DNA of 64,000 bases from Nitrospirota bacterium (lineage in GTDB: Bacteria; Nitrospirota; UBA9217): assembly GCA_963751455.1 (NCBI GenBank), contig CAVVUN010000003.1:160001-224000 (forward strand), read 5' to 3'. A model generated the notes under the pieces. It searched no databases, was not told the origin of the DNA, and saw nothing but the letters and a program-made list of their open reading frames with translations. Positions 15,315 through 39,800 of the stretch are shown one piece after another; the stretch's first letter is position 1; the number at the start of each line of letters is the position of its first letter. The translations under genes were made by a program, and so were the position numbers.

Positions 15315-16787
15315 TCAAAAAGAGGACGGTGGCGTGGACAGGACCTTATATTTGATCATCAGGTCCGTATATTCCGTAAACAGCGGCGAAGAATAGCTGC
15401 TGTAGTAGCTCTGTATGACGGCGTCGATGCTGCTCCATGTCCGGCGTCCTCCAACGAGTTCGGTAAAGAGGAAGATTATCTCTGCGTCACGAATATTGTT
15501 TTCCTGGAGGCCGGTCAATGCCTCGACGGTCTTGGTAACGGTCTTTGTCACCTGCGTGTCCGTGGCCGGATCAATGTAGGTAATCGTCAGCGTGAAGTCC
15601 CGTGTCTGCGTGGTATCGGACGGACCCGTGAAGACTTCGTAGAAGTACTGGGTGGTATTGTAGGAAAAGTTCGTCGGTTGGACGTCCTTGGACACGGTTG
15701 AAGTTTCCTCAGCCGCGCTGGTTACATGCGTAAAGGTCTCGGGGAAGTCGAGCCGGAATTGTACATGGCGTGCAGCCACGGAAACCAGCGCGATGAACCT
15801 GTCCTGAAACGCCCTTTTGGCATCACTGTTGGTAATGACCGAGAAGTATGAACCCTTGCCGGCCTCGGTAAGATCGTTCATGAATGGCTCGTTAAAATCT
15901 GATCCCACCCCGATGCCTGAAAAATATATCCCTTCAAGCTCGTTTATCCTGGTGTTTTGCGAGATGACCGTGCTGTCCACCTCGCCGATGTTCGCATAGG
16001 CGTCCGTGATCATCACGACCCTGTTCATCTTTGTCGGGTCGAAGGTACTAAGCGCCGCCTCGTACCCTTTTTGAAGGCCGTCGGCCAGGTTGGTTCCTCC
16101 TATGACATCGAGCGCATTGACCGCCGGAAGGAAGGAAGTCGATATCTGCGAAAAAAGAACGTTCGAGAGAATTATCTGCGCGTCGTTCGAGAAGGTTACC
16201 AGGTTGATAACATCTCCCTCTTTGAGCATCGCGGCCATTTGGGTCAGGCCGTATTTCACAATGTCGAGTTTCCGCGCCCCGAGCTCGGTCTCGTTCGTCG
16301 ACATCCAGTCCATCGACCCGGAAACGTCCACGACGAGGGTAAGCACCACGTTCTGCCTTTGCGCTACGGTGATTTCAGGCGAGGCGATGTACACGCCCAG
16401 GTAATAATCCGAATCGCCGGGCTCCTGTGCCGGACGCTTCATCACGCCTATGGAGACGCTGAAGGTTCCGAGGCTCTCGGGACCGGACGGGTCGAATGAC
16501 TCGTAATTAAGGAACTCCCAGGCGCGTGCCAGAGACGATGAGGGCAGTTGATTATTGTTCAGCTTGTACTTCACCAGCTCGACAGGCGCCGTACTGGCGG
16601 AATCATCATAGGAGAAGTAAAAGAATTTACTTGCGGAATCAACTCCTTCCTCGTGGTTGTTGTCAACCCCGCTCGGCAAGCCCGATCCTCCGGTGTTATA
16701 CCCGGCGCTGTTCTCGTTGCCTTTGCAAGCGGCAAGAACGCACAGCATCAACAGGATGACCAGCAGTGATTGTTTTCGTACGATCAC
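15315..16787 (-). CDS. vWA-domain lipoprotein
   Basis: Lipobox VLAAC; MIDAS DVSGS, GGTN, ITD; YFSGIGVG. Confidence 0.85.
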   Translation of the reverse strand: MIVRKQSLLVILLMLCVLAACKGNENSAGYNTGGSGLPSGVDNNHEEGVDSASKFFYFSYDDSASTAPVELVKYKLNNNQLPSSSLARAWEFLNYESFDPSGPESLGTFSVSIGVMKRPAQEPGDSDYYLGVYIASPEITVAQRQNVVLTLVVDVSGSMDWMSTNETELGARKLDIVKYGLTQMAAMLKEGDVINLVTFSNDAQIILSNVLFSQISTSFLPAVNALDVIGGTNLADGLQKGYEAALSTFDPTKMNRVVMITDAYANIGEVDSTVISQNTRINELEGIYFSGIGVGSDFNEPFMNDLTEAGKGSYFSVITNSDAKRAFQDRFIALVSVAARHVQFRLDFPETFTHVTSAAEETSTVSKDVQPTNFSYNTTQYFYEVFTGPSDTTQTRDFTLTITYIDPATDTQVTKTVTKTVEALTGLQENNIRDAEIIFLFTELVGGRRTWSSIDAVIQSYYSSYSSPLFTEYTDLMIKYKVLSTPPSSF

Positions 16788-16810
16788 TTTAAACCTCCTT
16801 CTCAGGAAAA

Positions 16811-17569
16811 TTAGAACGCATACATAACGCCGGCGCTGAAGCCTGTAAATATATTTCTGTCATCGTCTCCCGTCGACAGTGTTCCCAAAAATTGTTGAAC
16901 TTTAAGTCCGAGATTTGCGGTGAATTTTTCTGAAAAGGCCTGTTTCGCACCAATTTCGAAAACAAAACCATCTGCATCGAATGAGCCGGAATTCCCTCCA
17001 TTCGTAAAAGCGAATTCCTGACGCATTGCAAGAAAAGCCAGACTGCCGTAGATCCCCGTCCCTTGGCGAAACGATTTTGTTGCCGATATGCCGACGCCTC
17101 CGCCGCTCATTTTCCAGGTTCCCATATCGATATTTAGTAATCCAGCTGATGGATTCGTATAGGAAGTGGGTGCATCGATTCTTTTATACTCAAGAAAAGG
17201 CGCCCACGTTACGCTGTGAAGTCGAAAGAAGAAGAATTCCCGGCCAGCTCGGATATCAAATTCGCTCTGGCCGAACTCCATTGTATCACCAGGCGTGAGC
17301 CAGTCGGACGATTCATATTTATTCAGGGGAAAAAGATAATAGGTGTCGACAAACCACCGGTTTTGGGTTCGGACTGCCAGTTCAGGACCGGCAAGAGTTG
17401 CGCTGCCGTTGTGAAAATCATCCGAGCCGCCTCCTGGATGCGAGACTGTTTCATACCACGTGTTGCCCCATATTTTAAGGCCGAGCGAAGGACTGGTTTC
17501 TCCAGAAGCAGTTGCAGAGATGCAAAGAATAAAAAAAACTGAGAATAACTGTAGTGTCGTCTTCATCAT
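16811..17569 (-). CDS. Outer-membrane beta-barrel protein
   Basis: Signal peptide, amphipathic beta strands, C-terminal AGVMYAF Bam signature. Confidence 0.75.
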   Translation of the reverse strand: MMKTTLQLFSVFFILCISATASGETSPSLGLKIWGNTWYETVSHPGGGSDDFHNGSATLAGPELAVRTQNRWFVDTYYLFPLNKYESSDWLTPGDTMEFGQSEFDIRAGREFFFFRLHSVTWAPFLEYKRIDAPTSYTNPSAGLLNIDMGTWKMSGGGVGISATKSFRQGTGIYGSLAFLAMRQEFAFTNGGNSGSFDADGFVFEIGAKQAFSEKFTANLGLKVQQFLGTLSTGDDDRNIFTGFSAGVMYAF

Positions 17570-17597
17570 TCCTCCCTTGCTCTTAGATCTCGATCAC

Positions 17598-17631
17598 ATC
17601 ATATCGATCCGGAGCGTAAGTAAAGCTTAAG
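17598..17631 (-). promoter_or_regulatory. Candidate wHTH-activator promoter: 11-bp-phased direct repeat plus -10
   Basis: Minus strand CTTAAG-N5-CTTACG-N11-TATGAT upstream of the barrel gene. Confidence 0.4.
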
Positions 17632-17649
17632 GCACGGCGGGCGTACTTT

Positions 17650-19284
17650 TCAGGGTAAACACTGCCAGACAGCCATATCAAAATTGCTGTTGCTGTTTTG
17701 ACTGCTTCCCGCGACGACTATTCTGCCGTCCGGATTAAGAACAATAGCGCTTCCCGTATCGTCGCCGTTGCCGCCTGCTGCGCTATTGTGAACAAAAATT
17801 CCGTAATTGCTGAAATCTTCTACCGGCGTTCCATCCGAATTAAATGCCCAGATTACCATGTCTTTGCTGCCGGCAAAGTTTACGCTGCCGCCCGTTATAT
17901 AAATGCTGCCATCCCCCGACAGAGCAATGCCATTGCCCGTATCGTTCCCGTTGCTTCCGGCCGCGCCGTTGCTGATGACAACACCGTTGCCGTTAAAGTC
18001 AGGATCAAGCGAACCGTCTGCTTTGACCCGCCATGCGAGCATATCGATGTTGCCGACGCTGTTTCCGCTTGAGCCGGTAACAACGATCCTTCCTTGAGGG
18101 TCGATCGCGACCCCATTTGCGACGGCGTTGGAATTGGAACCCGAAAGGGCAGGGAGATCAACGATTCCCGAAGTATTGAAGGTTGTATCGAGCGCCCCAT
18201 CAGATTTGAAGCGCAAAACGACCATATCGGTAAAACCCGACGTGTTGACGCTGCTGCCGGCAACGACGATCCTGTCGTTCGCATCTATTGTAAGGGCTTT
18301 TCCGATATCGTCGCCATTACCTCTTGCCGCGCTGTTTTGAACGATAATTCCGCTGCCGTTTAGTCCCGTATCCACGGTCCCATTCGGGTTATACCGCCAG
18401 GCCGCGAGATCGAAATTGCCTGAGCTGTTTTTGCTGTATCCTGCAACGACAATTCGTTCCTGACCATCAATAACGACGGCATTCCCGCTATCATCGCCCT
18501 CGCCGCCTGCTGCGTTGTCGTGCCTGACATAACCGCTCGCGTTAAAGCTCGTATCGACGGTTCCGTCCTCGTTGAACCGCCATATCACCATGTCGGTATT
18601 CCCACCGCTCAGTCGGCTGCTGCCGGCAACAACGATCTTGCCGTACAAATCAAGGGCAACCGATTTGCCGTAGTCGGCTGCATTGTCAGTCGATGAGCTG
18701 TTACGGGTGACAAGACCGCTCCCGTTGAAAGTGCCATCCAGGGTTCCGTCAGCATTAAACCTCCAGACTGCCAGATCCACACCTCCCGAATTGTTTACGC
18801 TGCTTCCTGCAACAATTATTCGACCCTTGGGATCAATCGCAACCGCATTCCCGAAGTCATCCGAATTTTCTCCTGCAGCGTTGCTCTGTATGAGATACCC
18901 TTTCGGGTTGTTGAATGTCGGGTCTAACATTCCTCTGTTCATGCAGGACACTGACACATTCGTAATATTTGCAGAGAAAATTGTTCCGGAGCCGTTTGAA
19001 ACAAGGCACAGTTGTCCGATAGGATTGCTAAGGACAGTGACCGCATAGGAATTTCCGGCATTCACCCTGGCAGGAAATGTGAAAGAGCCGTTCGCGGTGA
19101 TCGTTACGTCGTCAGCCTTGTTGTTCTGCAGTACGAGCGTTCCTTGTAAACCGCTTACCGTGCCGCTGACTGAATATGGCATGGCTGCGGTCAAACTGCC
19201 GCCCCGCCCGTTGCCGCTGCCGGCACAGGCAGTTAAAGCGGCAACAGCGATAAACAGGCCCAGTACTCCGTGGTATTTTTTCAT
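17650..19284 (-). CDS. Lipoprotein with Ig-like module and Delta-60 repeat beta-propeller
   Basis: Lipobox LTAC; VSGTVSGLQGTLVLQNN module; about 7 repeats of DxGxAVAIDxxGRIVVAG...D(M/L)xVWRFNxDGxLDxxFN. Confidence 0.85.
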   Translation of the reverse strand: MKKYHGVLGLFIAVAALTACAGSGNGRGGSLTAAMPYSVSGTVSGLQGTLVLQNNKADDVTITANGSFTFPARVNAGNSYAVTVLSNPIGQLCLVSNGSGTIFSANITNVSVSCMNRGMLDPTFNNPKGYLIQSNAAGENSDDFGNAVAIDPKGRIIVAGSSVNNSGGVDLAVWRFNADGTLDGTFNGSGLVTRNSSSTDNAADYGKSVALDLYGKIVVAGSSRLSGGNTDMVIWRFNEDGTVDTSFNASGYVRHDNAAGGEGDDSGNAVVIDGQERIVVAGYSKNSSGNFDLAAWRYNPNGTVDTGLNGSGIIVQNSAARGNGDDIGKALTIDANDRIVVAGSSVNTSGFTDMVVLRFKSDGALDTTFNTSGIVDLPALSGSNSNAVANGVAIDPQGRIVVTGSSGNSVGNIDMLAWRVKADGSLDPDFNGNGVVISNGAAGSNGNDTGNGIALSGDGSIYITGGSVNFAGSKDMVIWAFNSDGTPVEDFSNYGIFVHNSAAGGNGDDTGSAIVLNPDGRIVVAGSSQNSNSNFDMAVWQCLP

Positions 19285-19358: not shown

Positions 19359-19392
19359 TATCTATCATGGGCGAGCATACAAATTGCTTACA
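19359..19392 (-). promoter_or_regulatory. Candidate wHTH-activator promoter: 11-bp-phased direct repeat
   Basis: Minus strand TGTAAG-N5-TGTATG-N11-TAGATA upstream of the Delta-60 gene; -10 match imperfect. Confidence 0.35.
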
Positions 19393-19502
19393 GGATCAGT
19401 TCTCAGTAAATTTTTCATTACGGATTCCATTCTGCCCTATCCCTTTGTTTTTGAATGTTTAACGAGGCGAGCCTCAGACCGATAAAAAGACAAAAACCTT
19501 GG

Positions 19503-19696: not shown

Positions 19697-22600
19697 CTAC
19701 GTTTCGGGCTGGGATGCTATCCGGGAATATACCTCTTCGGTTCTGGGGGAAGGATCAACGCCAAACCCGGCGGAGAGGACCTTTTTGCAGCGGCGGTACG
19801 TTTCTCTGGCCGCTGAAATTTGGCCGAGCTTACCATAGCAAGACATGAGTTCCTGATAGAGTTCTTCGTACTGATTGTCCCGCTCCAGACCTTTCTCAAG
19901 ATATTCTACCGCTTTTTCCTCATGCCCGGCCTTTTCAAGGCATTGCCCGCAGCGGACGATCGAATCCAGAAATTTCGTCCGCAGGCGCTCTCGAAGGGAG
20001 ATGGTCCATGGCTGCTCAATTTCGAGTTCGAGGAAGTGCCCTGCATACAAGCTCAAAATTTTGTCCGCGAAATGAATGGCCTGTTTCACGGATTCCTTCC
20101 TGGGTGCGCCCTGGAACACGTCTTTAGCCTGGCCGATAATATGTTCAAAAGCGAAAACGTCGACCCAGCAGCGCCGGGGATCAAGTGTGACCAGTCCTTC
20201 GTTCAGCAGAACTGCCTTATCGTCGCCTATCAGCCGGCGGAGCCGGTGGAGCGTGATTTCAAATGACTGGTGCGCCTGAGCGCCGTCGGAGTCCGGCCAG
20301 AGAGCGTCGATCAATCGTTGCCTGCTTACATCCGTGCCGCCGTATGCAATTATCGCCTTGAACAGCGACAGCAGCTTCTGTTGGCCTTTGCCTGAAAATT
20401 TCACCGGCACATCATCTTTAACAATTTGGAATTTTCCGAGTGTATAGATTTTCAGGGGCCAGGGCCAGTTTTCCAATTGCTGATTGCGGATTTCGGATTG
20501 CGGATTTAATTGCATTACGTCAGGAGGCGTTAAATTGCGTTTTTTGATAAGTTCGCGCACATAGTCTGTTTCGATCCCTGCCTCCAAAGCCTTTGTACAG
20601 AGGAAGGACACACGGTCGGGAAGCCATGACGCATTGCTCGCAAAGCCCTGTTTTCTGCCGATCGTCATCGCCCTGGTGAGGGCTTTCAGTCCTGCCGCTA
20701 TTTCACGCTTTCTCAGAAAATACCAGGCCTCGGTCATCAGGCTGCAGTATTCCGCTGTCTTGCAGTTTATCGAGACGGCGATAGCTTTTGCCTTTGCAAG
20801 ACAGGCCAGCCCCTCCTTCCTTTCTTTGCGTTCGAGCAGAATCAGGCCGAGCGCAAAAAAAGACTGCGCCATGTAAAAAGGCGCTCCGGATTTTGATGCA
20901 AAGGTAAAAGCATTTTGAGAATGCTCATAGGCCGCAGCGGTATCTCCCCGGAAAAGCGCCGCGAGGCCTGAAAAATGGTGATAATAGCCGATCAAGTTCA
21001 TTGAATCGGAGCGATTAATGGCGGATTTCATTCCTTCAAGAAACACCAGCGCCTCTTCTGATTTTCCCGTTATGACGCTTATAGCCGCTCCGGCGCCGAA
21101 TAACATGAAATCCCAGATATGAATCCCGTTTTCATCCGCGGTCCTCAGCCCCTCATTGACCGCAAGCATGCAATTTTCGTGATCGGCCTTCATCCAGTGA
21201 TACGTGGCCTCGATGGCGCGCCAAACAATGAAAGACAGAGGGTCAACTTCCCGGTTCCGGATCGACGACTTCAGTCCGTCGATAAGCAATTTGGCTTTTA
21301 CAAGATCTCCGGTCCACCACGTAAAATAGAGGATGAGTTGGCTGCTCAACTTCGATTGCAAACGAATGTCGCAGCTGCCGAGCACCGCATCTTCTACCCG
21401 GCGCGCCCACTGCGGAAGGTCCGGGTGATGGGGCTGGCGATACATAAGAGCGCAGAATATGCCTTCGATGCCCCGGGCGGCAATCTCCGGAGAGGGATAT
21501 TCCGGATATTCACGTTGAAGCGCCTCGAACTCCGCAATCCATGCATCAAGCGGAGCGAAGCTTCCTCCGCTATAAACAAACGTATCGACAATCCCGGACC
21601 AGGATAGATACAGCCCCGAAGCTTCTTTTTGGCGCTTGAACATCTGGAAAGCCCGGTCGAGATAATCTCTGCTTTCAACAAGACTGAACGGCATTCTCGA
21701 AAGGCCCGTCCAGTAAAGGAGCCAGGGATTGTTATTGACAATCTCTTTCGGAAGACCAGCCAGCCATTCCTGGAGCGTCTTCCCCCTGCCTTCCCTAATA
21801 AGCGACTGAGCATGACCGAGTATCAATCGGACGAGCCCTTCCCAATCCCGGGCATCCCGGAGAAAAAGGTACGCCTGTTCGATCTGTCCCGATTGCTCCA
21901 GGAGAATGGCGGCATTCCCCAGAATCACGGCGCGCTCCTCTGAACTCAGAAGACTTTTCATCTTCATCAGGAGGAACTCTCTGAACAGGGAATGATAGTG
22001 GTAAACAGGATTTTCTTCGGTTCGCTTTTCAATGAAGTAGTGGCTTCTGTGGAGCTGGGACAGGATCTCCCCAGATGTGCGGACCCCCGTCAGCCTTTCG
22101 GCTGTCTGCGGAGTCATCGACGGCAGGACCGAGCTCTTCAGCAGAAATTCCCGCGTTACGGCATCCGTCTTCTCGAAAATCTCGGTTGCAAAATAATCAA
22201 AAACGGTTTCCGGCACCAGCCTGGTCAGCGTGGCTGGATCGATGCCTGCTCGTTTCGTGCCCTCCACAAAGAGTACGAGGCCTGCCATCCATCCTTCGGT
22301 CTTCCGGTATACCTCCGCAAGCGTCTCGTCAGTCAGATTTGCCTGTCCACATGTTCGAACAACTTCACGGGATTCCTCCGGTGTGAAGCGTATCTCGCTC
22401 CATCCGACGGACCCGATCTTGTTATTCGCGCGCAAACGGGCAAACTGCCGCGGCGGCTCATTCCTGCTCAGTATAATCACATTGATCCCCGGAGGGATCA
22501 CTTCAATGCCGGAGACAACCATTTCGTGGAAATTCGGGCCATCCGAGACGTCCTGGTAATTGTCAAATACGATAGTGAAGGGAGTGTTGAATCGCTCGCA

Positions 22601-22954
22601 GAGATTTTCAAAGTAACGTTTGGTAAAAGTGGGGATCCCCTGTAGATATTCAGTGGTCAAGAGCGGGAGAGGCGTTCGATTATGGGAAGACACTTTCGCG
22701 GCGGCGCGGCCCGCATAACTGAAAAAGGTTGCGATGTCCGCGTCTCCCTGGTCCACAACATACCAGATGCAGGCCAGATTTCGGGCGTCGAGATAGCTGG
22801 AGACGAGAGTTGTTTTCCCCGATCCCGCAGGCCCGGACACCCAGACGACGGTCCGCTTTCGACCGTCGTCAAGCAGACGAAAGAGTCTTTCCCGTTGGAA
22901 AACTCCGGAAACTGTCGGTCTCGTAATCTTGGTTGTCGGCGGGCGTTCCTGCAT
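19697..22954 (-). CDS. MalT-like STAND NTPase-TPR regulator with C-terminal SARP (wHTH+BTAD) module, copy 1
   Basis: Start MQERPPTTKITRP with GAGG RBS (ORF-track N-extension is repeat DNA); Walker A GPAGSGKT, Walker B IVFDNYQ, TEGWMAGL, YHYHSLF; WPWPLKIYTLGKF, LWPDSDG, EELYQELMSCY. Confidence 0.88.
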   Translation of the reverse strand: MQERPPTTKITRPTVSGVFQRERLFRLLDDGRKRTVVWVSGPAGSGKTTLVSSYLDARNLACIWYVVDQGDADIATFFSYAGRAAAKVSSHNRTPLPLLTTEYLQGIPTFTKRYFENLCERFNTPFTIVFDNYQDVSDGPNFHEMVVSGIEVIPPGINVIILSRNEPPRQFARLRANNKIGSVGWSEIRFTPEESREVVRTCGQANLTDETLAEVYRKTEGWMAGLVLFVEGTKRAGIDPATLTRLVPETVFDYFATEIFEKTDAVTREFLLKSSVLPSMTPQTAERLTGVRTSGEILSQLHRSHYFIEKRTEENPVYHYHSLFREFLLMKMKSLLSSEERAVILGNAAILLEQSGQIEQAYLFLRDARDWEGLVRLILGHAQSLIREGRGKTLQEWLAGLPKEIVNNNPWLLYWTGLSRMPFSLVESRDYLDRAFQMFKRQKEASGLYLSWSGIVDTFVYSGGSFAPLDAWIAEFEALQREYPEYPSPEIAARGIEGIFCALMYRQPHHPDLPQWARRVEDAVLGSCDIRLQSKLSSQLILYFTWWTGDLVKAKLLIDGLKSSIRNREVDPLSFIVWRAIEATYHWMKADHENCMLAVNEGLRTADENGIHIWDFMLFGAGAAISVITGKSEEALVFLEGMKSAINRSDSMNLIGYYHHFSGLAALFRGDTAAAYEHSQNAFTFASKSGAPFYMAQSFFALGLILLERKERKEGLACLAKAKAIAVSINCKTAEYCSLMTEAWYFLRKREIAAGLKALTRAMTIGRKQGFASNASWLPDRVSFLCTKALEAGIETDYVRELIKKRNLTPPDVMQLNPQSEIRNQQLENWPWPLKIYTLGKFQIVKDDVPVKFSGKGQQKLLSLFKAIIAYGGTDVSRQRLIDALWPDSDGAQAHQSFEITLHRLRRLIGDDKAVLLNEGLVTLDPRRCWVDVFAFEHIIGQAKDVFQGAPRKESVKQAIHFADKILSLYAGHFLELEIEQPWTISLRERLRTKFLDSIVRCGQCLEKAGHEEKAVEYLEKGLERDNQYEELYQELMSCYGKLGQISAARETYRRCKKVLSAGFGVDPSPRTEEVYSRIASQPET

Positions 22955-23346: not shown

Positions 23347-25284
23347 TTACGTGCTCTGCGCTCTTGTGTAATTTAGCATCCCGCCCGCAAGAAGAATGTC
23401 CCTCTGTCTTGCGCTTAAGGAATATTTGAGCGTGATGGTTTTCCCGCCTGATGTTTTCAAGACAAGGTCCGTGCCCTTCGCGAGGGCGGCCTTTATGTCG
23501 CTGATCTCAACTTTATCATTCGCTGCTACTACGTCATAATCCGCTTCACTCGCAAAGGTGAGCGGCAGAATGCCGAAATTGATCAGGTTTGCGGCATGGA
23601 TCCGCTCGAACGACTTCGCGACGACCGCCCTCACGCCTAGGTACATCGGGCAGATCGCGGCATGCTCGCGGCTTGAACCCTGTCCGTAGCTTGCCCCGGC
23701 AATAACAATATTATGTGTTCCTGCCTTCTTGTTCTCGAGCGCATGCTTGGAGAAGGTCGCATCCACTCCCTCGAACACGAACTCTGCGTATTTCGGAATG
23801 TTCGACCGGTACTTCAATCTCGATCCTGCGGGCATGATATGGTCCGTCGTTATTTTGTCACCGACCTTGATAGTGACGATTCCTTTAATAGCATCCGGAA
23901 GAGCTTCCGCTGCGGGCGGATCTCCGATATTCGGTCCCCGCGAGATCGTGATTGACAACGGATCCTTCGAGGGAGGGAGAATCATCGAATCATCGATCCA
24001 GAATTCCGATGGAATTTCGATTGCCGGATATGGTATGCCGAGCTCGCGCGGGTCAGTGATCGCGCCGGTAAGGGCGGCAGCAACCGCTGCTTCCGAGCTT
24101 GCAAGAAATACTTTCGCGCTCTTCGTTCCAGAGCGCCCTTCGAAATTACGGTTGCTTGTCCGGATCGATACTGCGTCTGTTTTGGGCGCCTGGCCCGCGC
24201 CTATGCAGAAACCGCACGTCGATTCCAGCACCCGGGCGCCGGCCGAGACGATGTCGGCAAGCGCGCCGTTTTTTGCAATCATCTCCATCACCTGCCGGGA
24301 CCCCGGTGCAACCCCGAAACTTACGTCCGAGAACACCCGCCTGCCTTTGAGCATCGAAGCCACGATCATAAGATCACGATACGAAGAATTGGTGCATGAG
24401 CCCACCATTACCTGATCCACCTTGGTTCCCGCAAGCTCCTTCACGGTCCCGATGTTATCCGGCGAATGCGGCTTTGCCACCAACGGTTCCACTGTCCTGA
24501 GGTCAAGATCGATAACCTTGTGGTACTCTGCGTCAGTATCGGCCGCAAGCGCAACCCATTCGTTCTCCCTGCGCTGTGCCTTCAAAAACGCTTTGGTGAG
24601 CTCGTCGCTCGGAAAAACAGAGGTTGTCACACCGAGTTCCGCGCCCATGTTCGTAATGGTCGCGCGTTCCGGCACGGTCAGGGTTTTTACACCATCCCCG
24701 CCGTATTCGATGACGGTCCCCACATTGCCTTTGGTGGTCAGCATTCTCAGAATAGTGAGAATAACATCCTTTGACGATACCCACGGCTGCAGCCTGCCGG
24801 TGAGGTTGACTTTTACCACTTTGGGGCAGGTCAGATAGAATGCTCCGCCGCCCATCGCGACCGCGACATCAAGACCGCCCGCGCCGATCGCGATCATGCC
24901 GATGCCGCCGCCGGTCGGCGTGTGAGAATCGGAACCCAGAAGCGTCTTGCCGGGCCTTCCGAAACGCTCGAGATGAACCTGGTGACAGATGCCGTTTCCC
25001 GCCTTTGAGTAGTAAACACCGTATCGTGATGCCACGGTTTGAAGGTACCTGTGGTCGTCGGCGTTTTCGAACCCGTCCTGGAGCGTGTTGTGATCAACGT
25101 AGCTTACCGAAAGTTCCGTCATTGCCCTCGGCACGCCCATCGCCTCGAATTGAAGGTACGTCATGGTGCCGGTAGCATCCTGCGTAAGGGTCTGGTCGAT
25201 TTTTATCGCGATCTCCGAACCCGCCTCAAGGTTGCCCTCTACCAGATGCGATTCGAGTATTTTATAAACGAGATTTTTCCCCAT
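23347..25284 (-). CDS. Aconitate hydratase (short ~645-aa type)
   Basis: TQDATG, DHN, GICHQ, GSDSHT, GSCTNS, CGFCIG, TSNRNFEGR, ITTDHI, YGQGSSREHAA. Confidence 0.93.
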   Translation of the reverse strand: MGKNLVYKILESHLVEGNLEAGSEIAIKIDQTLTQDATGTMTYLQFEAMGVPRAMTELSVSYVDHNTLQDGFENADDHRYLQTVASRYGVYYSKAGNGICHQVHLERFGRPGKTLLGSDSHTPTGGGIGMIAIGAGGLDVAVAMGGGAFYLTCPKVVKVNLTGRLQPWVSSKDVILTILRMLTTKGNVGTVIEYGGDGVKTLTVPERATITNMGAELGVTTSVFPSDELTKAFLKAQRRENEWVALAADTDAEYHKVIDLDLRTVEPLVAKPHSPDNIGTVKELAGTKVDQVMVGSCTNSSYRDLMIVASMLKGRRVFSDVSFGVAPGSRQVMEMIAKNGALADIVSAGARVLESTCGFCIGAGQAPKTDAVSIRTSNRNFEGRSGTKSAKVFLASSEAAVAAALTGAITDPRELGIPYPAIEIPSEFWIDDSMILPPSKDPLSITISRGPNIGDPPAAEALPDAIKGIVTIKVGDKITTDHIMPAGSRLKYRSNIPKYAEFVFEGVDATFSKHALENKKAGTHNIVIAGASYGQGSSREHAAICPMYLGVRAVVAKSFERIHAANLINFGILPLTFASEADYDVVAANDKVEISDIKAALAKGTDLVLKTSGGKTITLKYSLSARQRDILLAGGMLNYTRAQST

Positions 25285-32100: not shown

Positions 32101-32332
32101 GTACCTGGAAGAGTCCGCACAGTGGAGAAAAGCAGTGGAAATCTTTCAGCGCGGGCTTGAAACGGACGAATTCGCCGAGGAGTTCTATCAGCATCTTATG
32201 ATGTGCTACCAAAGACTAGGCCAAAAGGCCGAGGCAATCAGGGTCTTTGATCATTGCAGGACGGTCTTATTTTCCGCGCTTGGAATTTCCCCCTCGAAGC
32301 AAACAGAAGCGCTCTACTCTTCACTCCTGTAA
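29106..32332 (+). CDS. MalT-like STAND-TPR-SARP(BTAD) regulator, copy 3 (frameshifted)
   Basis: Close tandem paralogue of copy 2, split over ORFs 29091-31274, 31271-31702, 31638-31892, 31865-32332; shifts probably sequencing errors. Confidence 0.85.
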
Positions 32333-32449: not shown

Positions 32450-32477
32450 TTGACAACATAATGCACAAATATATAAT
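32450..32477 (+). promoter_or_regulatory. Consensus sigma70 promoter
   Basis: TTGACA-N16-TATAAT upstream of the FadL-like gene. Confidence 0.6.
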
Positions 32478-32726: not shown

Positions 32727-33962
32727 GTGACATTCAGATATATTTTGATGTTTTTCTGTGTATGGATGGCATCTGCAGGGAATGCCTTTGCCGGCGGACC
32801 CGTGCACGGCTCCAGGGCTGCCGGCATGGGCACCGTTTTCGTGGGGGTGGCTGACGATCCCTCGGCGATTCTCTTCAATCCCGGGGGGCTGACCCAAACA
32901 AAAGGGACGGTTCTGTACAGCGGCATTACCGCTGTCGCTCCCTCTACCGAGTATACGGATTCTTCGGGCTCGAACTCCGCTCGGACGGAATCGCAGGTCT
33001 TCTTTCCTCCCCATTTGTATGCCGCGACCGATCTTGACACCAACGATCTCGTCTTCGGTCTCGGGCTGTACTCTCCTTTCGGAATCGGCGGCAGAAAATG
33101 GGACCCCTCCGGTCCGACCCGGTATGTATCGGTAGAAAGCAGCATTGCAACCTTTTCCCTAAATCCCACAATTGCCTGGCGGCAATCAGAAACCCTATCA
33201 CTTGCGTTCGGGGTCGATTACCTGCGCTCTGTCATGGAAATGAAGCGTATGATCGACCAGTCCCTGGCAGGCGCCGGCGATGCTTCATCGGCAGTTGAAG
33301 CGGACGGAGGCGGATGGGGGTATAACCTGGGCGTGCTCGCAAGAATGGGGGAGGCGGTAAGGATCGGTTTTGCATACCGGAGCGCCATCAGCGTCAACAA
33401 CCAGGGAGAAATGACCATTGAGCGCATCGCCCCCGCGTTCCAGCCCCTGTTCGGAGGGGAGTCTTACAAAACCGGTGTTTCGACCAGGACTCGATTCCCT
33501 GAAATATACAGCGCAGGAATCTCCTTCACGCGGGACCGGGAGTATGTTGTCGGTGCGGACGTGGAACTTGTCCGCTGGTCCAGCTTTAAACGTATGCAAC
33601 TCAACATCGACCGGGAAGTTCCTGCAGCAGGTCTGGTTGATACCGAAACCGCCCTGGACTGGAAAGACTCCTGGCAGCTGAAGTTCGGCGCGGAGTTTTG
33701 GATGAGCGATGCCGTTGCGTTGCGGGCCGGTTACGCGTTCCTTAATTCGCCGGTTCCGGATCATACACTCGAACCGGGAAACCCGGATGCCGACCAGCAT
33801 AACATCAGCATCGGAGCGGGATACCGCGCGGCGAGTTGGTGGATCGACGGCTTTTACGATATCGCCCTCTTCCGTGACCGTTCAGTCCAGAACGGGATTC
33901 TGAACGGAACATATGAAAACCTCACCCACTACGCGGGAATAAGCGTGGGGACCACTTTCTAA
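32727..33962 (+). CDS. FadL/OmpP1/TodX-family outer-membrane transporter
   Basis: Signal peptide; GMG...GVADDPSAILFNPGGL hatch motif; YSPFG; GGWGYNLG; C-terminal Phe. Confidence 0.9.
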   Translation: MTFRYILMFFCVWMASAGNAFAGGPVHGSRAAGMGTVFVGVADDPSAILFNPGGLTQTKGTVLYSGITAVAPSTEYTDSSGSNSARTESQVFFPPHLYAATDLDTNDLVFGLGLYSPFGIGGRKWDPSGPTRYVSVESSIATFSLNPTIAWRQSETLSLAFGVDYLRSVMEMKRMIDQSLAGAGDASSAVEADGGGWGYNLGVLARMGEAVRIGFAYRSAISVNNQGEMTIERIAPAFQPLFGGESYKTGVSTRTRFPEIYSAGISFTRDREYVVGADVELVRWSSFKRMQLNIDREVPAAGLVDTETALDWKDSWQLKFGAEFWMSDAVALRAGYAFLNSPVPDHTLEPGNPDADQHNISIGAGYRAASWWIDGFYDIALFRDRSVQNGILNGTYENLTHYAGISVGTTF

Positions 33963-34066: not shown

Positions 34067-34111
34067 TTTCACATATACCCGTCCGCTACGCGCGGACGGG
34101 TATATGTGAAA
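34067..34111. repeat. Perfect 20-bp stem-loop
   Basis: TTTCACATATACCCGTCCGC-tacgc-GCGGACGGGTATATGTGAAA. Confidence 0.9.
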
Positions 34112-34152: not shown

Positions 34153-34187
34153 AAACAGAAACGCTCTACTCTTCACTCCTGAAATAA
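34153..34187 (+). pseudogene. 3'-terminal remnant of a further STAND-SARP regulator copy
   Basis: AAACAGAAACGCTCTACTCTTCACTCCTGAAATAA (TETLYSSLLK*) matches the end of copy 3 at 28/29 nt and shares the CTGAAATAA stop of copy 2. Confidence 0.8.
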
Positions 34188-34317
34188 GATCAGAACGCTC
34201 CCCCCCGGCTGTACCGGCCGAATACAATATCTTTTCTCCCCGCGGTTTAGCAGGAATACCGGAAAATCTTGTATTTCCCTTCATGGGCAGGCCAATTCCC
34301 AAAAAAAATGTGCAATC

Positions 34318-34351
34318 TGTGACCCTGTCGTGACTTTCTCTTTAGTATGCT
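34318..34351 (+). promoter_or_regulatory. Candidate SARP-type promoter
   Basis: TGTGAC-N5-CGTGAC followed by N8-TAGTAT or N11-TATGCT. Confidence 0.45.
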
Positions 34352-34455: not shown

Positions 34456-34674
34456 ATGAACAGCTATATCCTGCGCATTTACCGGGAAGAAGAAAACAAT
34501 CCGAGGAATTTCGTCGGAACCGTGGAAGAAGCGGGTGCCGGCGAGAAAAGAGCCTTCACCAGCCTCGATGAACTTTGGGCGATCCTGAATCCCGCCGCCA
34601 GAAGAAAAGCGGAAGAATTAGACGAAGCAGAGCATAACGTAAAAAGCGGGGTCCGGGTAAAACAGGGGCGCTAA
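34456..34674 (+). CDS. Small conserved hypothetical protein (YILRIYR...GTVEE...FTSLDEL)
   Basis: 72-aa ORF, duplicated at 36259. Confidence 0.7.
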   Translation: MNSYILRIYREEENNPRNFVGTVEEAGAGEKRAFTSLDELWAILNPAARRKAEELDEAEHNVKSGVRVKQGR

Positions 34675-34696: not shown

Positions 34697-36228
34697 ATGA
34701 ACAGGTCATTCTTGTTATGCACCATGGTTTTAGCATTCGGGTTTCTGCTCGGGGCCTGCGGCAGTGACGGCGCAAACGGCAGTGACGGAATAAATGGCAA
34801 TGATGGGTTTTCCACGCTCACCATCATTACCGATGAACCAACAGGGGCCAACTGCGCCAACGGAGGCAAAAAAGTTGATGTAGGAGCGGACTCCGACAGA
34901 GACGGGGCCCTCGCCAGCGCCGAAACAACGACAACGTATTACCTTTGCAACGGCGCGACCGGCACAACGGGCTCAACCGGCGCTACCGGCCAGACAGGTT
35001 CAACCGGCTCGACAGGCTCAACCGGTGCAACCGGCCCGGCAGGACCAGGCGTTGCGTGGGTGAATGTCACGGGCACATCAGTACAGGCCGTGTCAAACAC
35101 CGGGTATATGGCAAACAATGTGTCCCAGGTCACGATCACAGTCCCGGCCTCGCCGGCGGTTGGCGATATTGTCCGGGTGTCTGGCGTCGGCGCAGGCGGC
35201 TGGAAGATCGCGCAGAATGTATGGCAGTCCATAATAGCAAGCGCTATCGAAATGATCGGCGCGGTCTGGACTTCGAGTGAATCAAACAGAAGCTGGTACT
35301 CCGTTGCCTCATCTTCTGACGGGACAAAGCTGGTGGCCGTGGATTACGGCAGCCAGATTTACACTTCGACGGATTCGGGCGCTACCTGGACGGTGCGCGA
35401 ATCAAACAGAAACTGGATGTCGGTTGCCTCATCTTCTGACGGGACAAAGCTGGTGGCCGCGGTTTGGAACGGTCAGCTTTACACTTCGACAGATTCGGGC
35501 GCTACCTGGACGGCGCGTGAATCAAGCAGAAACTGGTACTCCGTTGCCTCATCTTCTGATGGGACAAAGCTGGTGGCCGCGGTTTACGGCGGCCAGATTT
35601 ACACTTCGACGGATTCGGGCGCTACCTGGACGGCGCGCGAATCAAGCAGAAGCTGGAAGTTGGTTGCCTCATCTTCTGACGGGACAAAGCTGGTGGCTGT
35701 GGTTGACGGCGGCCAGATTTACACTTCGACGGATTCGGGCGCTACCTGGACGGCGCGCGAATCAAGCAGAAACTGGAGGACGGTTGCCTCATCCTCTGAC
35801 GGGACAAAGCTGGTGGCTGTGGTTTACGACGGCCAGATTTACACTTCGACAAATTCGGGCGCTACCTGGACGGCGCGCGAATCAAACAGATACTGGTTCT
35901 TCGTTGCCTCATCCTCCGACGGGACAAAGCTGGTGGCCGTGGTTTGGGGCGGCAAGATATACACTTCGACGGATTCGGGCGCTACCTGGACGCCACGCGA
36001 ATCAACCAGAAGCTGGAGGTCGGTTGCCTCATCCTCTGACGGGACAAAGCTGGCGGCTGTGGTTTACGGCGGCCAAATCTATACATCGATTCCGTCAGCT
36101 ATCCCAAACACAACGTAGGAACCGCAGGCTCAATCAGCGGCGGTCAGTATGATGCCATCGAACTGCAGTATGTAGGCAACGATACCTTCAATATCCTGAG
36201 CCATGAAGGCAGCCTCAATGTGCAGTAA
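34697..36228 (+). CDS. Lipoprotein: collagen-like stalk plus 7 x 40-aa repeat beta-propeller (frameshift near 36113)
   Basis: Lipobox LGAC; GxT triplets 34952-35049; repeats WTARESxRxWxSVASSSDGTKLVAxVxxGQIYTSTDSGAT; other frame ends GSISGGQYDAIELQYVGNDTFNILSHEGSLNVQ*. Confidence 0.85.
35266..36090 (+). repeat. Coding tandem array, about 7 x 120 bp
   Basis: Units recur exactly every 120 nt (atcaa at 35281, 35401, 35521, 35641, 35761, 35881, 36001). Confidence 0.95.
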
Positions 36229-36258
36229 GTCGCCGGCAACGAAGTCGCGGACAAGAGT

Positions 36259-36456
36259 GTGAACACTTGCATCGCGCGAATCTACCGGGAGGAAGAAAAT
36301 AATCCGCGGAATTTCGTCGGGACCGTGGAGGAGGCCGGCACCGGCGAGAAAAGAGTCTTCACCAGTCTGGATGGGGGAAACATACACCAAGAAAGCAAAC
36401 ACAAGAAGCGTCATCCGCTCGAACCGGAGACGCTAATCCAAGGAGGTTCTTTATGA
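36259..36456 (+). CDS. Second, divergent or truncated copy of the small conserved protein
   Basis: IARIYREEENNPRNFVGTVEEAGTGEKRVFTSLD nearly identical to the 34456 ORF, then diverges. Confidence 0.55.
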   Translation: MNTCIARIYREEENNPRNFVGTVEEAGTGEKRVFTSLDGGNIHQESKHKKRHPLEPETLIQGGSL

Positions 36457-37319
36457 AGAAATTGACGAAGTTGAAGAAATTGGCTATTTGGTCAACGGCA
36501 TTCATTTTGCTGGCGGTATTCGCCGGGTGCGGCGGGGGGAGCAATGGCGGGACCAATGCCGCGGACACGGGCGGTGACACCTCTAACGATGCGGTAGATC
36601 AGGAAACGACCGCGACTCTTACCGGCATTGTGAATTCCCAGTCGGTAATGGGCCCCACTATACAGACACAAGTCCTTTCCTTCTTTACGTATACAATGCC
36701 GGAAGGTGTTCCTGGTGGTCCGGGCTCGGGCGCGTCAGCATCGCCCAGACTTTCCTCATCGCAAGTAAAGCAAAACGCGGGCATATGCGGCTCAGGCAGC
36801 TGGTTCGGTCCTGACGGGCAGGGGTGGTATTGGCGTTCCTGTCAGTGGGGTTATGGTGACGACCAAATAACTGAGTATGCCAGGAACCTGCCCTCCCCGG
36901 AAACAGGAAGTGAATATAAAACAAAATATGTCATGGGCACTGATATAGAGGGCAAGACGACGGTAGAGACCCATACGAAAACGGCCAAAAAAGAAAATAA
37001 CTTGTACAGCGGGTTCTACGATTTGAAAACCACTTCGAGTGGTTATTCCGATACAGGATGGGCGCGTTCCACATTTACCTTCGATAATTATGATTTCGCA
37101 ACCTCAGCCGGCACATTTGAATGGTGGTCGGGAGGCGATGTGAACGACTATTTCCCGTATCAGCGTTTCTTGACAATACTGGCGATTGACAAAGGCAATA
37201 ATACCCTTCACGTTAAAGTTACCTGGCATATTAACGATTCGGCGAGCAATTCTTTCAGCTGGGAATACGATTGCCCTTATCGGTCGTCCCCAATTCCGGC
37301 CTTTGCTCCTGCAAAGTGA
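36453..37319 (+). CDS. Hypothetical lipoprotein
   Basis: AGGAGG RBS, lipobox FAGC followed by a Gly linker; no family recognised. Confidence 0.75.
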   Translation: MKKLTKLKKLAIWSTAFILLAVFAGCGGGSNGGTNAADTGGDTSNDAVDQETTATLTGIVNSQSVMGPTIQTQVLSFFTYTMPEGVPGGPGSGASASPRLSSSQVKQNAGICGSGSWFGPDGQGWYWRSCQWGYGDDQITEYARNLPSPETGSEYKTKYVMGTDIEGKTTVETHTKTAKKENNLYSGFYDLKTTSSGYSDTGWARSTFTFDNYDFATSAGTFEWWSGGDVNDYFPYQRFLTILAIDKGNNTLHVKVTWHINDSASNSFSWEYDCPYRSSPIPAFAPAK

Positions 37320-37536
37320 TATGCCTGCTGCGACGTGAAGACTGGAGCGAAGCAGGCGGAGGGGACTAAAACAAATCAGGCGCGGAGTTCGGGGAGAAAG
37401 ACAAAAAAACAGCAGTGAGAATAATCGGAGTAAACAATAAAGCAGATATCGTCAGGACTGCAGGATTGTTGTCTCGATTATTCCAAGATAGTAACGGAGC
37501 CCTTTATAAGGCCCGAAAAAACAGGAGGGAAATATC

Positions 37537-38988
37537 ATGAAGAAGCAGCGCGTTGCAGCATGGTACGGAGTGGTTCTGGTTCTTATTGCGTCCTTGGCTT
37601 TATTCGGATGCGGCGGTGGAGGAGGTGGAGGCACGCCGGGCGCCGCAACGTACACGGTCGGCGGCACGGTGAGCGGGCTGACGGGCGCGGGGCTCGTCCT
37701 CCAGAATAACAGCGGGGACGATAAGAGCATCGCCGCGAACGGCGCGTTCACATTTGCGACCGCACTCACCGGCAGTACGAGCTACACGGTCACGGTAAAG
37801 ACCCAGCCCGCAAACCAGACCTGCGTAGTCAGCAATGGTACGGGGAGCGTGTCGGCCGCGAACGTGACGAATGTGGCAATCTCATGCACGACGAACAGCG
37901 GAGTAACCACCTACACAATCGGCGGCACGGTGAGCGGACTGACGGGCGCGGGGCTCGTCCTCCGGAATAACAGCGGGGATGACAAGAGTATCGCCGCGAG
38001 CGGCGCGTTCACGTTTGCAACGGGAGTCGCAAACAGCGGGACATACAACGTCACGGTCAAGACCCAGCCCTCGAGCCAGACCTGCACGGTCGCGAGCGGC
38101 AGCGGCGCCGTGGCCGGCGCCAATGTGACGAACGTGGCAATAACCTGTGCGGCGGGTGGTGGGACCAGTAGCGGCACACATATCTATGCAACAGGCTACC
38201 ATGAGATCGTGGGGATAAATGACATGACCGGCGCAGGCTGGACCACCTTCGGAACAACCGGCACCGGTGTTAACCAGTTTGGCAGCAGTCCGCGAGGTAT
38301 TTACGCGGATGCAAACGGAAAGATCTACGTCGTGGACAAAGATAACAATCGTATCATTCGGATAGACGACATGACCGGCGCGGGCTGGGTCTCCCTGGGC
38401 AGTACGGGCGCCGGAACCAATCAGTTTAAAGGGCCGACCGGCATTACTATGGACACGGCCGGGAAAATTTATGTGGCCGACTCGGGCAACTACCGGATCG
38501 TGCGCATGGACGATATGACCGGCGCGGGCTGGACAACGCTGAGCATAAACTATCTCAGCGGCGGCATCTTCGTGGATGCGACAGGAAAAATATACGCGAC
38601 GACAGCGAGCTCGATCCTTCGGGTCGACGACATGACCGGCGCGAACCGCGTTAATTATACCGGTGCGACCAACACGTTTTCATTTCCACAAGGCATCACC
38701 GTGAATGCCGGGAAGATTTACGTGGCTGACTCATGCAATAACCGGATCGTGCGCATGGATGATATGGCCGGCACAGGCTGGACGACGCTGGCCACGAACA
38801 GCTACACCGGCTTTGGCGCTTGCGGGACGCAAAGCATCTTTGTGGATTCAGCGGGAAAGATTTATGTAGGGGACACACAAAAGGGGCTTGTACGTTTTGA
38901 TGGCATGACCGGTGCGGGCGAGACCTTAATAGTCGACTCGGTCGGCACTAAGGGATACAACTTAACGTATGGCGTCTTTGTTCGATAG
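37537..38988 (+). CDS. Lipoprotein with two Ig-like modules and an NHL-repeat propeller
   Basis: Lipobox LFGC; duplicated YTxGGTVSGLTGAGLVLxNNSGDD (37651, 37912); GKIYVADSGNYRIVRMDDMTGAGW repeats. Confidence 0.85.
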   Translation: MKKQRVAAWYGVVLVLIASLALFGCGGGGGGGTPGAATYTVGGTVSGLTGAGLVLQNNSGDDKSIAANGAFTFATALTGSTSYTVTVKTQPANQTCVVSNGTGSVSAANVTNVAISCTTNSGVTTYTIGGTVSGLTGAGLVLRNNSGDDKSIAASGAFTFATGVANSGTYNVTVKTQPSSQTCTVASGSGAVAGANVTNVAITCAAGGGTSSGTHIYATGYHEIVGINDMTGAGWTTFGTTGTGVNQFGSSPRGIYADANGKIYVVDKDNNRIIRIDDMTGAGWVSLGSTGAGTNQFKGPTGITMDTAGKIYVADSGNYRIVRMDDMTGAGWTTLSINYLSGGIFVDATGKIYATTASSILRVDDMTGANRVNYTGATNTFSFPQGITVNAGKIYVADSCNNRIVRMDDMAGTGWTTLATNSYTGFGACGTQSIFVDSAGKIYVGDTQKGLVRFDGMTGAGETLIVDSVGTKGYNLTYGVFVR

Positions 38989-39026
38989 CAACCGGACCGT
39001 GGCAACGAAGATGAAAACGCTTTTGA

Positions 39027-39057
39027 GGGAGCAGGACAGGGTCCTGCTCCCGTTTTT
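39027..39057 (+). terminator. Intrinsic terminator
   Basis: GGGAGCAGGAC-agg-GTCCTGCTCCC-GTTTTT. Confidence 0.8.
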
Positions 39058-39151
39058 CAGTCTGCTTGATGAAGTGGAGCAGGCGTGAGCCAAGGTAGGC
39101 AGCACCGTGCAGGTGAGCGGCACGACGCCGAATAGCATCTTAGCACCGGCT

Positions 39152-39800
39152 GATACGCACCCTCAACTTGACGCATGGCGAGGACTTTTTTCCTGATCCT
39201 TTGTGGCCCTGGCCGGTCAGGATCATTACGCTCGGAAAATTTGATATTCTAAAAGACGGCAAGCCGCTCGGTTTTACCCGCAAGGTCCAGCACAAGCCGC
39301 TCATGCTTCTCAAGGCCCTCATCACATTCGGAGGCAGCGAAGTCCCTGAAGAAAAGGGCTCTGATCTCCTCTGGCCGGATTCGGAAGGCGATGCGGCGCA
39401 CAGCGCGTTCTCAACCACGCAGCAGCGGCTGCGCTCGCTGGTCGGCAACGACAAAGCGCTGCTCCTGAACGAGAGGCGGCTGTCGCTTGACCATCGTTTC
39501 TGCTCAATCGATGCCTGGTTCTTTGAGCGGATGCATGAGCGGGCGGATGCACTGTGGCGCAGTGTTCATGATAAGAGCGGCCGCAAACAGGCGCGCGCCG
39601 CGGCGAAACGCATACCGTTACGGGGAAAAAGCACTCGAGCTTTACCACGGTTCCTTCCTGCCCGGTGACGCCGGCCAGGCCTGGACCGCGCCATACCGGG
39701 AACGGCTGAGAAGTAAATATCTGAGGCTCGTTCTTCAGCAAGGCCTGTACCTGGAAGGGTCTTCGCAGTGGCAAAAAGCGGTCGAGACCTTTCAGCGCGG
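39152..39800 (+). pseudogene. STAND-SARP regulator fragment (wHTH plus part of BTAD only)
   Basis: WPWPVRIITLGKF...LWPDSEGDAAHSAFSTT...RERLRSKYLRL; lacks NTPase/TPR and the last BTAD helices. Confidence 0.8.

Follow-up and report, generated by a model that had tools for sequence, protein, structure and literature searches.

What do regulators that recur several times within a short stretch of bacterial DNA act on, and do they form a single system with the genes around them? This question is raised by the window, i.e., the whole stretch of 64,000 nucleotides of Nitrospirota DNA analysed here, in which one regulator family is found next to genes for putative envelope proteins. The original prediction was that five traces of STAND-TPR-SARP regulators are paired with surface beta-propeller lipoproteins and serve cell recognition or conflict. 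All five traces were recovered at the positions given; two of them are intact regulators, one is a copy with frameshifts, and two are remnants. The features of the region are as follows:

15315-16787, minus strand: vWA-domain lipoprotein (PF13519, E 1e-9).
16811-17569, minus strand: predicted outer-membrane beta-barrel (PF13505, E 5e-4, below cut-off).
17650-19284, minus strand: Delta-60/DUF5122 beta-propeller lipoprotein (TIGR02608, 7 repeats), first gene after box 1.
19359-19396, minus strand: box 1, TGTAAGC-N4-TGTATGC at 19396-19375, 10-bp spacer, TG-extended -10-like element.
19697-22954, minus strand: R1, intact regulator (start ATG at 22954, 1085 aa) with a MalT-type NOD, a TPR sensor and, at the C-terminus, winged helix plus BTAD; key recognition-helix residues Q, E, I, H.
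23347-25284, minus strand: aconitase, between the two cassettes.
25581-28811, plus strand: R2, intact regulator of 1076 aa; key helix residues S, S, T, Q.
29106-32332, plus strand: R3, duplicated from R2 in tandem; its 3' third carries four frame changes.
32727-33962, plus strand: FadL/OmpP1 channel (PF03349), upstream of box 2.
34153-34206, plus strand: regulator 3'-end remnant, ~110 bp upstream of box 2.
34314-34351, plus strand: box 2, TGTGACC-N4-CGTGACT at 34314-34335, 10-bp spacer, -10 TATGCT at 34346-34351.
34456-34674, plus strand: small ORF of 72 aa with a beta-beta-beta-alpha core.
34697-36228, plus strand: DUF7151-collagen-BNR 40-aa-repeat lipoprotein, ORF stop at 36118.
36256-36375, plus strand: small ORF again, as a truncated second copy (82% over 39 aa).
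36453-37319, plus strand: orphan lipoprotein without a Pfam family.
37537-38988, plus strand: NHL lipoprotein with two Ig-like repeats.
39027-39051, plus strand: terminator-like hairpin after the NHL lipoprotein.
39159-39870, plus strand: R5, C-terminal part of an R2/R3-type regulator, frameshifted; no box was found behind it.

R1 and R2 share 40% protein identity. R3 is 82% identical to R2 at the DNA level and its frame changes lie near 31163, 31619, 31812 and 31935; the 54 bp of the remnant are 83% identical to the 3' end of R3, and 34 bp are 88% identical to that of R2. The source genome (G000) contains five further copies outside the window: C15 carries a tandem pair and a divergent copy (23-26%), and C12 carries the other two. 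A stop or frameshift is present in two of these. It should be noted that single indels may be assembly errors, because a rough background count gave four frame changes in 61 other loci of this genome; this explanation is less likely for the four in R3. The proposed duplication with decay is borne out by R3, the remnant, R5 and the broken copies elsewhere in the genome.

The proposed architecture is also confirmed. The MalT chain 8bob matches regulator positions 6-409 (E 4.5e-60), and the AfsR chain 8k60 matches positions 820-1071 (E 1.9e-17), where an EmbR chain matches as well. BTAD (PF03704) was found above cut-off, with E-values of 1e-22 and 3e-20, and so were TPR Pfam matches in R2, PF17874 reaching only E 0.007. 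The domain order is therefore NOD-TPR-SARP, with the SARP module (winged helix plus BTAD) at the C-terminus. No Pfam match to a LuxR HTH was found in the regulators, which score 186-200 bits on the MalT NCBIfam model (cut-off 537) and 31-42 bits on the AfsR model (cut-off 1430). PH0952 matches the regulator at E 3e-9. The Walker A motif is intact (G44, G46, K47 and T48 are invariant in A1). The Walker B motif reads DN in 123 of 139 family proteins, including R1 and R2, and DD in 14, as it does in all six divergent paralogues lacking the box described below. Loss of D129 in MalT reportedly blocks hydrolysis. Since MalT has DD where this family has DN, the nucleotide switch may work unlike that of MalT. 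Variation within the protein is highest in the TPR region, with a mean identity of 0.29 versus 0.54 for the NBD. The family is distributed patchily and in multiple copies (88 of 401 genomes, up to six matches each) and, counting the records with a name, spans six phyla or more. A plasmid search returned three records, none covering 80%, and thus gave no sign of plasmid carriage there.

What these regulators may bind is suggested by an 11-bp direct repeat, (ATCYGTnnnY)x2, which was found downstream in 92 of the 138 held-out relatives, compared with 1/138 in antisense, 2/690 in shuffled and 2/75 in distal control windows. An extended -10 element, on which the search was not trained, appears at a fixed spacing from the box, with TG at 0.71 and 0.79 and TA at 0.80 and 0.95. 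Its distance from the box equals that of the afs box: in the second repeat, the invariant T lies 15 nt before the -10, matching the spacing from T-27 to position -12 of AfsR (PMC10936776). No box lies within 900 nt of the other 46 held-out regulators, and tandem copies plus FadL account for only 13 of 60 box-less loci. In the source genome, each of the top four among 44 matches is found no more than 1.2 kb downstream of a family regulator; a matrix blind to the core separates these sites less well (ranks 1, 3, 8 and 9 of 33). We rejected a dispersed genome-wide regulon in this case, as strong boxes occur only beside regulators in this genome. Box 1 scores 21.0 bits on a matrix trained without this genome, ranking third of 11.4 million positions, and is likely to be the R1 site. 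Box 2 reaches no more than 12.2 bits when the general matrix is used, which is genome background and not significant alone; its support comes from position, the helix code and locus L196.

Mutual information between box and recognition helix peaks at columns 85, 88, 89 and 92, which align with A84, R87, T88 and S91 of AfsR. D or E at column 88 pairs with G in 53/53 cases, K or R at 88 with C in 22/22, and K85 with G in 16/19; helices of the type S..[ST]T go with a GAC core in 27 of 30 half-sites, and the same core is found in L196 and in both halves of box 2, where it is the one expected from the R2 helix. When kin with at least 55% identity were left out, the helix predicted the core at 0.72, versus 0.55 for the rest of the domain and 0.43 at random. 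Tests on independent pairs were small: two rules gave 5.2/7 and 5.8/7 concordant pairs, none opposite (median p 0.06 and 0.03), and the remaining four rules had at most four pairs. Single-residue rules learnt on 32 loci predicted held-out half-sites modestly (124 vs 85, 145 vs 125 and 156 vs 152 of 216). Both boxes of the window (19375-19396 and 34314-34335) fit the helix of the neighbouring regulator, and genome G001 has the same regulator-FadL-GAC-box order and the same helix as the window. Because a change in the helix goes with a change in the box, each paralogue would in most cases address its own cassette. Taken together, the co-variation argues strongly that the SARP module binds the box directly.

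The envelope genes of the region were annotated largely as had been proposed (vWA, barrel, Delta-60, FadL, BNR, orphan and NHL), the barrel assignment being below the Pfam cut-off. The barrel and vWA genes probably belong to the Delta-60 operon, judging from gaps of 80 bp and 23 bp, respectively. The BNR gene is frameshifted near 36110, and the tail typical of its family continues in another frame to 36228. Atlas searches returned unnamed clusters only; for the orphan lipoprotein the similar entries, at 0.90, are lipoproteins without a name, which is a weak lead. Five of the envelope proteins in the window begin with a lipoprotein-like N-terminus. Envelope cargo near homologues, on which the original prediction had been set beforehand to stand or fall, is indeed enriched: according to a home-made signal-peptide heuristic, the first cargo is exported at 72 of 126 box loci, versus 76 of 596 controls. 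At about one third of the box loci the next gene is antisense or not called exported. Other parts of the prediction did not hold. Beta-propeller lectins are local to the window and not a family rule, since only four clear and two possible propellers occur among 104 first cargo genes, 48 of which have no Pfam match. FadL as a regulator output is not supported; it lies upstream of the box and has its own promoter (12/12 sigma-70 consensus, 32450-32477). Nor is the idea of one system supported, because the aconitase gene splits the region into two divergent cassettes. We rejected aconitase as a member: orthologues with 80-87% identity in 12 of 15 same-family genomes mark it as a housekeeping bystander. 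We also observed that the galT and USP genes lie ~1.1-1.3 kb apart in G188 and G086 versus 25 kb here, which might point to a single inserted island, but the interval contains this core aconitase.

The predicted link between regulator and small ORF stands: a small ORF comes first behind 76 of 126 boxes, versus 13 of 60 box-less loci with the ORF. Its family, of ~2,600 members, has no Pfam or NCBIfam match, and neither has the window copy. These ORFs are conserved in a coding style (third codon position 0.65 vs 0.34 and 0.29, n=69), and in eight of 16 longer relatives tested they are fused to PilZ-like domains. The model has a pLDDT of 89, and fold searches gave it no clear match (best Z 3.9; nothing from Foldseek at E 0.001). 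A resemblance to AP2/MBD DNA-binding domains is a tentative lead, and the comparison with AtMBD6 (Z 3.5, rmsd 3.6, 42 aligned) is tied with unrelated folds.

Based on these data, we consider it probable that the regulators are local one-component switches, in which a MalT-type STAND-SARP protein acts on the box downstream of its own gene and drives exported cargo plus the small protein. A signal would open the TPR-NOD lock, a step for which MalT and AfsR are the models; the C-terminal SARP module would then bind the direct repeat just 3' of its own gene and, as the promoter geometry and the analogy with AfsR suggest, activate the promoter by sigma adaptation at the -35 position, turning on the small protein and a variable exported set. 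R1 would thus control the Delta-60, barrel and vWA genes, and R2 the small ORF and the BNR, orphan and NHL genes. The inducer might be a small molecule, perhaps hydrophobic where FadL adjoins the regulator, and the small protein might have a feedback role. Neither a conserved ligand synthase nor a partner operon was found in 160 loci. A bolder version seems doubtful to us, namely that these are three-part cassettes combining an activator with a four-residue address, a small-protein off switch that replaces ATP hydrolysis (coupled to c-di-GMP if PilZ-fused) and swappable exported cargo, which together would provide every cell with several orthogonal channels to alter its surface in response to FadL-imported signals, and which would be widespread among Gram-negatives and unpublished.

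The promoter logic could be the same with a degenerate nucleotide switch: with Asn replacing the second Walker B Asp of MalT, ATP would be hydrolysed poorly, and the small protein, as a MalY-like anti-activator or a PilZ-fused reader of c-di-GMP, would do the switching instead of a ligand. The prevalence of DN, its replacement by DD in the box-less paralogues, the frequent first position of the small ORF and the PilZ-like fusions are consistent with this view, and we also count in its favour that MalT is held off by partner proteins (PMC10427625). However, a small ORF is missing within 1.5 kb at 50 of the 126 box loci, the proteins retain Walker A and the complete NOD-arm-TPR, and the TPR region varies as expected for a diversifying sensor, so that we regard this explanation as unlikely.

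Antiviral STAND and NLR-like defence proteins also combine a STAND NTPase with a repeat sensor. The regulators might likewise sense a protein of an invader, predator or neighbour and in response switch on surface lectins or adhesins that serve recognition or conflict, the roles originally proposed. The variable TPR sensor, the rapid decay and the patchy multi-copy spread would fit, as would the Ig, Lcl_C, YadA and propeller proteins and the many orphans among the cargo. However, the effector is a transcription module, in contrast to those defence proteins, and the PADLOC models match neither R1, R2 and the small ORF nor four of five cargo proteins, the fifth giving one weak NHL-repeat match. 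Solute-binding proteins, hydrolases, cytochromes and PEP-CTERM proteins are found among the cargo as well, and no neighbour family exceeds nine of 160 loci, that one being FadL. We therefore consider a role in conflict quite unlikely, and this part of the prediction was not borne out. That the window is mostly debris of a recombination-prone cassette that multiplied and now decays, leaving cargo without useful control in this genome, is highly improbable: three of the five copies, the BNR gene, the second small ORF and two further regulator copies in the genome are damaged and box 2 is weak, but R1 and R2 are intact, each with the box type predicted by its own helix, the arrangement recurs in G001, and the small ORF is conserved as coding sequence.

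The local switch that we favour can be compared with known systems. The nearest SARP comparison is AfsR and the afs box of afsS in Streptomyces coelicolor (PDB 8K60, 8JKE and 8HVR; PMC10936776). Common to both are an OmpR-type winged helix plus BTAD with NOD and TPR in one chain, a pair of 11-bp direct repeats covering the -35 region, co-varying residues that fall on recognition helix alpha3, and a conserved helix Arg (R92 in AfsR). AfsR differs in that its SARP module is N-terminal and that it controls antibiotics, whereas the window family has a C-terminal SARP module and a MalT-type NOD, occurs in Gram-negative phyla, has its target promoter directly behind its own gene with paralogue-specific box letters, and has exported proteins and the small ORF as cargo. 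MalT of Escherichia coli (PDB 8BOB; PMC10427625) shares the N-terminal NBD-HD-WHD-arm, the TPR-type sensor, a C-terminal DNA-binding effector and, at some loci of the family, an adjacent outer-membrane channel. However, its effector is a LuxR HTH, its Walker B motif is DD, and sugar transport is not as a rule the cargo here. PH0952-type TPR-STAND proteins (PDB 6MFV; PMC6468293) share the STAND core and the TPR arm and sensor, but are archaeal with an N-terminal ArsR-like effector.

In our search of the literature (mostly open-access), no paper on the architecture, the box or the small ORF was found. Activation by SARPs is known mainly from antibiotic clusters of actinomycetes. The family described here has SARP promoter geometry with an inverted MalT-like protein, tied to exported proteins. 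It also gives some 2,600 small proteins a place in a defined circuit, and it poses a question, open to experiment, about STAND proteins in which the second Walker B acid is missing. For uncultured bacteria, the co-variation of helix and box may permit target prediction from sequence, and the helix-box pairs would be natural orthogonal activator-promoter pairs for reporter work.

Translated and nucleotide self-searches recovered the five traces of one regulator family that the original prediction had recognized in the window, and its descriptions of the neighbouring genes also proved accurate. The copies R1, R2, R3 and R5, a regulator remnant and the small ORF discussed below are as follows.

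Regulator copies and small ORF in the window
19697-22954, minus strand: R1, intact regulator
25581-28811, plus strand: R2, intact regulator
29106-32332, plus strand: R3, regulator with 82% DNA identity to R2 and four frame changes
34153-34206, plus strand: 54-bp remnant of a regulator 3' end
39159-39870, plus strand: R5, broken C-terminal regulator piece
34456 (start), plus strand: small ORF of 72 aa, with a truncated twin at 36256

Five additional copies are present on contigs C12 and C15 of the same genome (G000). The genes assigned to a single system spanning 15315..39800 are thus present, but they do not form one unit, because an aconitase, which is a housekeeping gene, separates two divergent cassettes. 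At 36118 the gene for the BNR lipoprotein has a stop, and its family-typical tail goes on in another frame; 43/120 homologues match the pattern of this tail. Elsewhere in the window, an imperfect inverted repeat of 78 bp is located at 7331-7408, and the cluster is followed at 40873-44767 by a membrane sensor kinase (GAF and three PAS domains) and then a LuxR response regulator; in genomes G086 and G188, the response regulator comes after a USP gene, without a large kinase ORF in between.

A profile built from 13 regulators matched MalT (8bob) over positions 6-409 (E 4.5e-60) and the SARP module of AfsR over positions 820-1071 (E 1.9e-17), and the stretch separating these parts is a TPR region; the NCBIfam cut-offs for MalT and for AfsR were not reached. 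Walker A is invariant in the family, whereas Walker B, which is DD in MalT, is DN in 123/139 members. Mean pairwise identity is 0.54 for the NBD, 0.51 for the winged helix and 0.29 for the TPR sensor. According to a C-terminal profile search, 88/401 genomes of the phylum carry the family, which is also found in named records of Thermodesulfobacteriota, Pseudomonadota, Planctomycetota and Myxococcota, among others.

On reading the DNA 3' of the regulator stop codons, an 11-bp direct repeat, here called the box, was noticed. A matrix of the 22-bp repeat, constructed with G000 left out, detected the box after 39/72 regulators of a first set (leave-one-out), and in none of the controls (antisense, 0/72; shuffles, 0/720; low-scoring C-termini, 0/9). 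In a held-out set of 138 non-redundant loci, each with at least 400 nt downstream, the box was present in 92, versus 1/138 antisense, 2/690 shuffles and 2/75 distal windows. An extended -10 (TG, then TA...T), which is absent from the matrix, lies exactly 10 bp 3' of the repeat. The distance from the invariant T of the second repeat to the -10 hexamer, which starts at -12, is 15 nt. In the AfsR study (PMC10936776), AfsR binds a pair of 11-bp repeats that overlie the -35 region, with R92 reading T-38 and T-27. The spacing from -27 to -12 equals that of the family box. A divergent paralogue clade (G000 C15:545558-548794 and loci L016-L018, L020 and L021), having ~25% identity and DD at Walker B in 6/6 cases, has no box downstream; its G000 copy is oriented divergently from two lipoprotein-like genes.

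The variable letters at positions 1-3 of each box half (the core) were masked in a core-blind matrix, which detected the box in 143/217 loci versus 1/217 shuffles; the two halves agree at these positions in 127, 113 and 120 of the 143 (expected 63, 68 and 57). Within the C-terminal module, columns 85, 88, 89 and 92 best account for the core letters. Their counterparts in recognition helix alpha3 of AfsR are A84, R87, T88 and S91, of which the last three are reported to contact DNA (PMC10936776). In loci with agreeing halves, D/E at column 88 coincides with G in 53/53, K/R at 88 with C in 22/22, and K at 85 with G in 16/19, these residue-letter rules having been picked after inspection of the data. 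As a control for kinship, a tree was built with the helix left out; on it, column 88 shows 15-17 state changes, and independent pairs on supported branches are concordant in 5.2/7 and 5.8/7 with none opposite (median p 0.06 and 0.03); the four remaining rules offer too few independent pairs. With kin of at least 55% identity excluded, the core is predicted at 0.72 by the nearest helix, 0.55 by the nearest rest-of-domain and 0.43 by a random locus. When 32 training and 108 test loci were used, column 88 independently came out best for core position 3, and column 85 for core position 2. Judged at the sequence level, the helix-box code is real but combinatorial, the latter because single-residue rules gain modestly on the 216 half-sites (124 vs 85, 145 vs 125, and only 156 vs 152).

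Scanning G000 gave 44 matches of at least 12 bits, the four best of which, including box 1 beside R1 (19375-19396), each lie no more than 1.2 kb downstream of a family regulator. Column 88 is E in R1, and both halves of box 1 carry G at the corresponding position. Box 2 (34314), in the R2 cassette, ranks 39, within the shuffle background (64-80 such matches per shuffled genome), and has the second-best -10 score. Its core is GAC/GAC, and the helix class of R2 (S,S,T,Q) is associated with GAC in 27/30 half-sites; in genome G001, a regulator with an R2-identical helix is followed by FadL and then a GAC/GAC box. Position and code thus support box 2 as a candidate site. At C12:137963 (minus strand), a site resembling the box scores 23.9 bits core-blind and has a good -10; no family regulator adjoins it, and it is possibly a distant target or a chance match.

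The predicted enrichment of envelope cargo, originally put forward as a test, was borne out: using a home-made signal-peptide rule, and skipping the small ORF, the first gene after the box was called exported in 72/126 loci (19 of them lipoproteins), versus 76/596 genes after random long G000 ORFs and 13/60 for box-less regulators. Pfam, run on the first 440 aa of 104 of the 106 cargo genes (two were dropped as small-ORF overlaps), identified Ig, fn3, Lcl_C, PEP-CTERM, YadA, solute-binding proteins, barrels, hydrolases and cytochromes, with no match in that segment for 48/104; propellers account for four clear and two possible cases among the 104. A second array, at C15:382177-388730, consists of a box, a small ORF, a lipoprotein, a second small ORF and three further lipoprotein-like genes, and the recurrence of small ORFs suggests that "small ORF + cargo" is the unit by which arrays expand. 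A gene pair, presumably nucleotidyltransferase/HEPN-like, stands between this array and two tandem regulators.

The small ORF is likewise enriched near the regulators, as had been expected, following 76/126 boxes, in most cases no more than 100 nt from the -10, versus 13/60 box-less loci. It is present in 56 of the 401 genomes screened for the regulator, and 51 of these 56 are among the 88 carrying it. Of 90 matches, 67 are co-oriented with a regulator located up to 16 kb upstream, counted with most, not all, regulator rows; 20 of the other 23 were inspected, of which six have a regulator C-terminus upstream, seven have a box, and five, lacking a box, are of a divergent type that follows a LuxR response regulator. 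At these last loci (L294, L295, L297, L298 and L300), which have no STAND regulator either, the gene on the other side is one that we take to be branched-chain aminotransferase-like. The small ORF shows coding-type conservation and its relatives at the 50% level number 2,596; the fold predicted for it (pLDDT 89) has three strands plus one helix, and structure searches with this model gave no clear match. A PilZ-like domain was detected in 8/16 longer relatives tested (P0001, P0003, P0006, P0025, P0032, P0076, P0086 and P0122), in four of them above the cut-off, so that a link to c-di-GMP is possible. We infer a regulatory role for the small protein.

FadL is the commonest recurrent neighbour (9 of 160 loci). 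It directly follows 8/217 regulators, is never behind a box, and is itself followed by a box in 5/7 cases with sequence, which, by gene order, puts it on the same side of the promoter as the regulator, including in the window, where it has its own sigma-70 promoter (12/12 match). One guess is that FadL imports an inducer in a minority of loci. A near-perfect palindrome of 45 bp (34067-34111) between FadL and the regulator remnant may be a terminator, a mobile-element scar or a recombination site. At L286, an ORF (515-1271, oriented coordinates) that separates the box from the STAND regulator presumably resembles a LuxR autoinducer-binding regulator.

A role in defence or conflict, also proposed originally, found no specific support, PADLOC matching included. 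The AfsR study describes a SARP module damped by NOD and TPR and relieved by ATP binding (PMC10936776). By analogy with AfsR and with MalT (PMC10427625, PMC6468293 and PMC4381067), the regulator would likely be autoinhibited at rest; a signal received by its TPR sensor would open it, whereupon two SARP modules would be placed on the repeat and recruit RNA polymerase to a promoter that appears to have no usable -35. Given the altered Walker B and a linked small protein, it is conceivable that the off switch differs from that of MalT. AfsR and MalT already provide precedents for the parts and for the activation geometry. Literature searches of limited depth turned up no description of the inverted order, of the self-addressed promoter downstream, of the helix code or of the small partner. 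The cassettes duplicate and decay, and for 7/186 regulators a further one lies no more than 2.5 kb away; with addresses that co-vary, cross-talk between cassettes would be limited.
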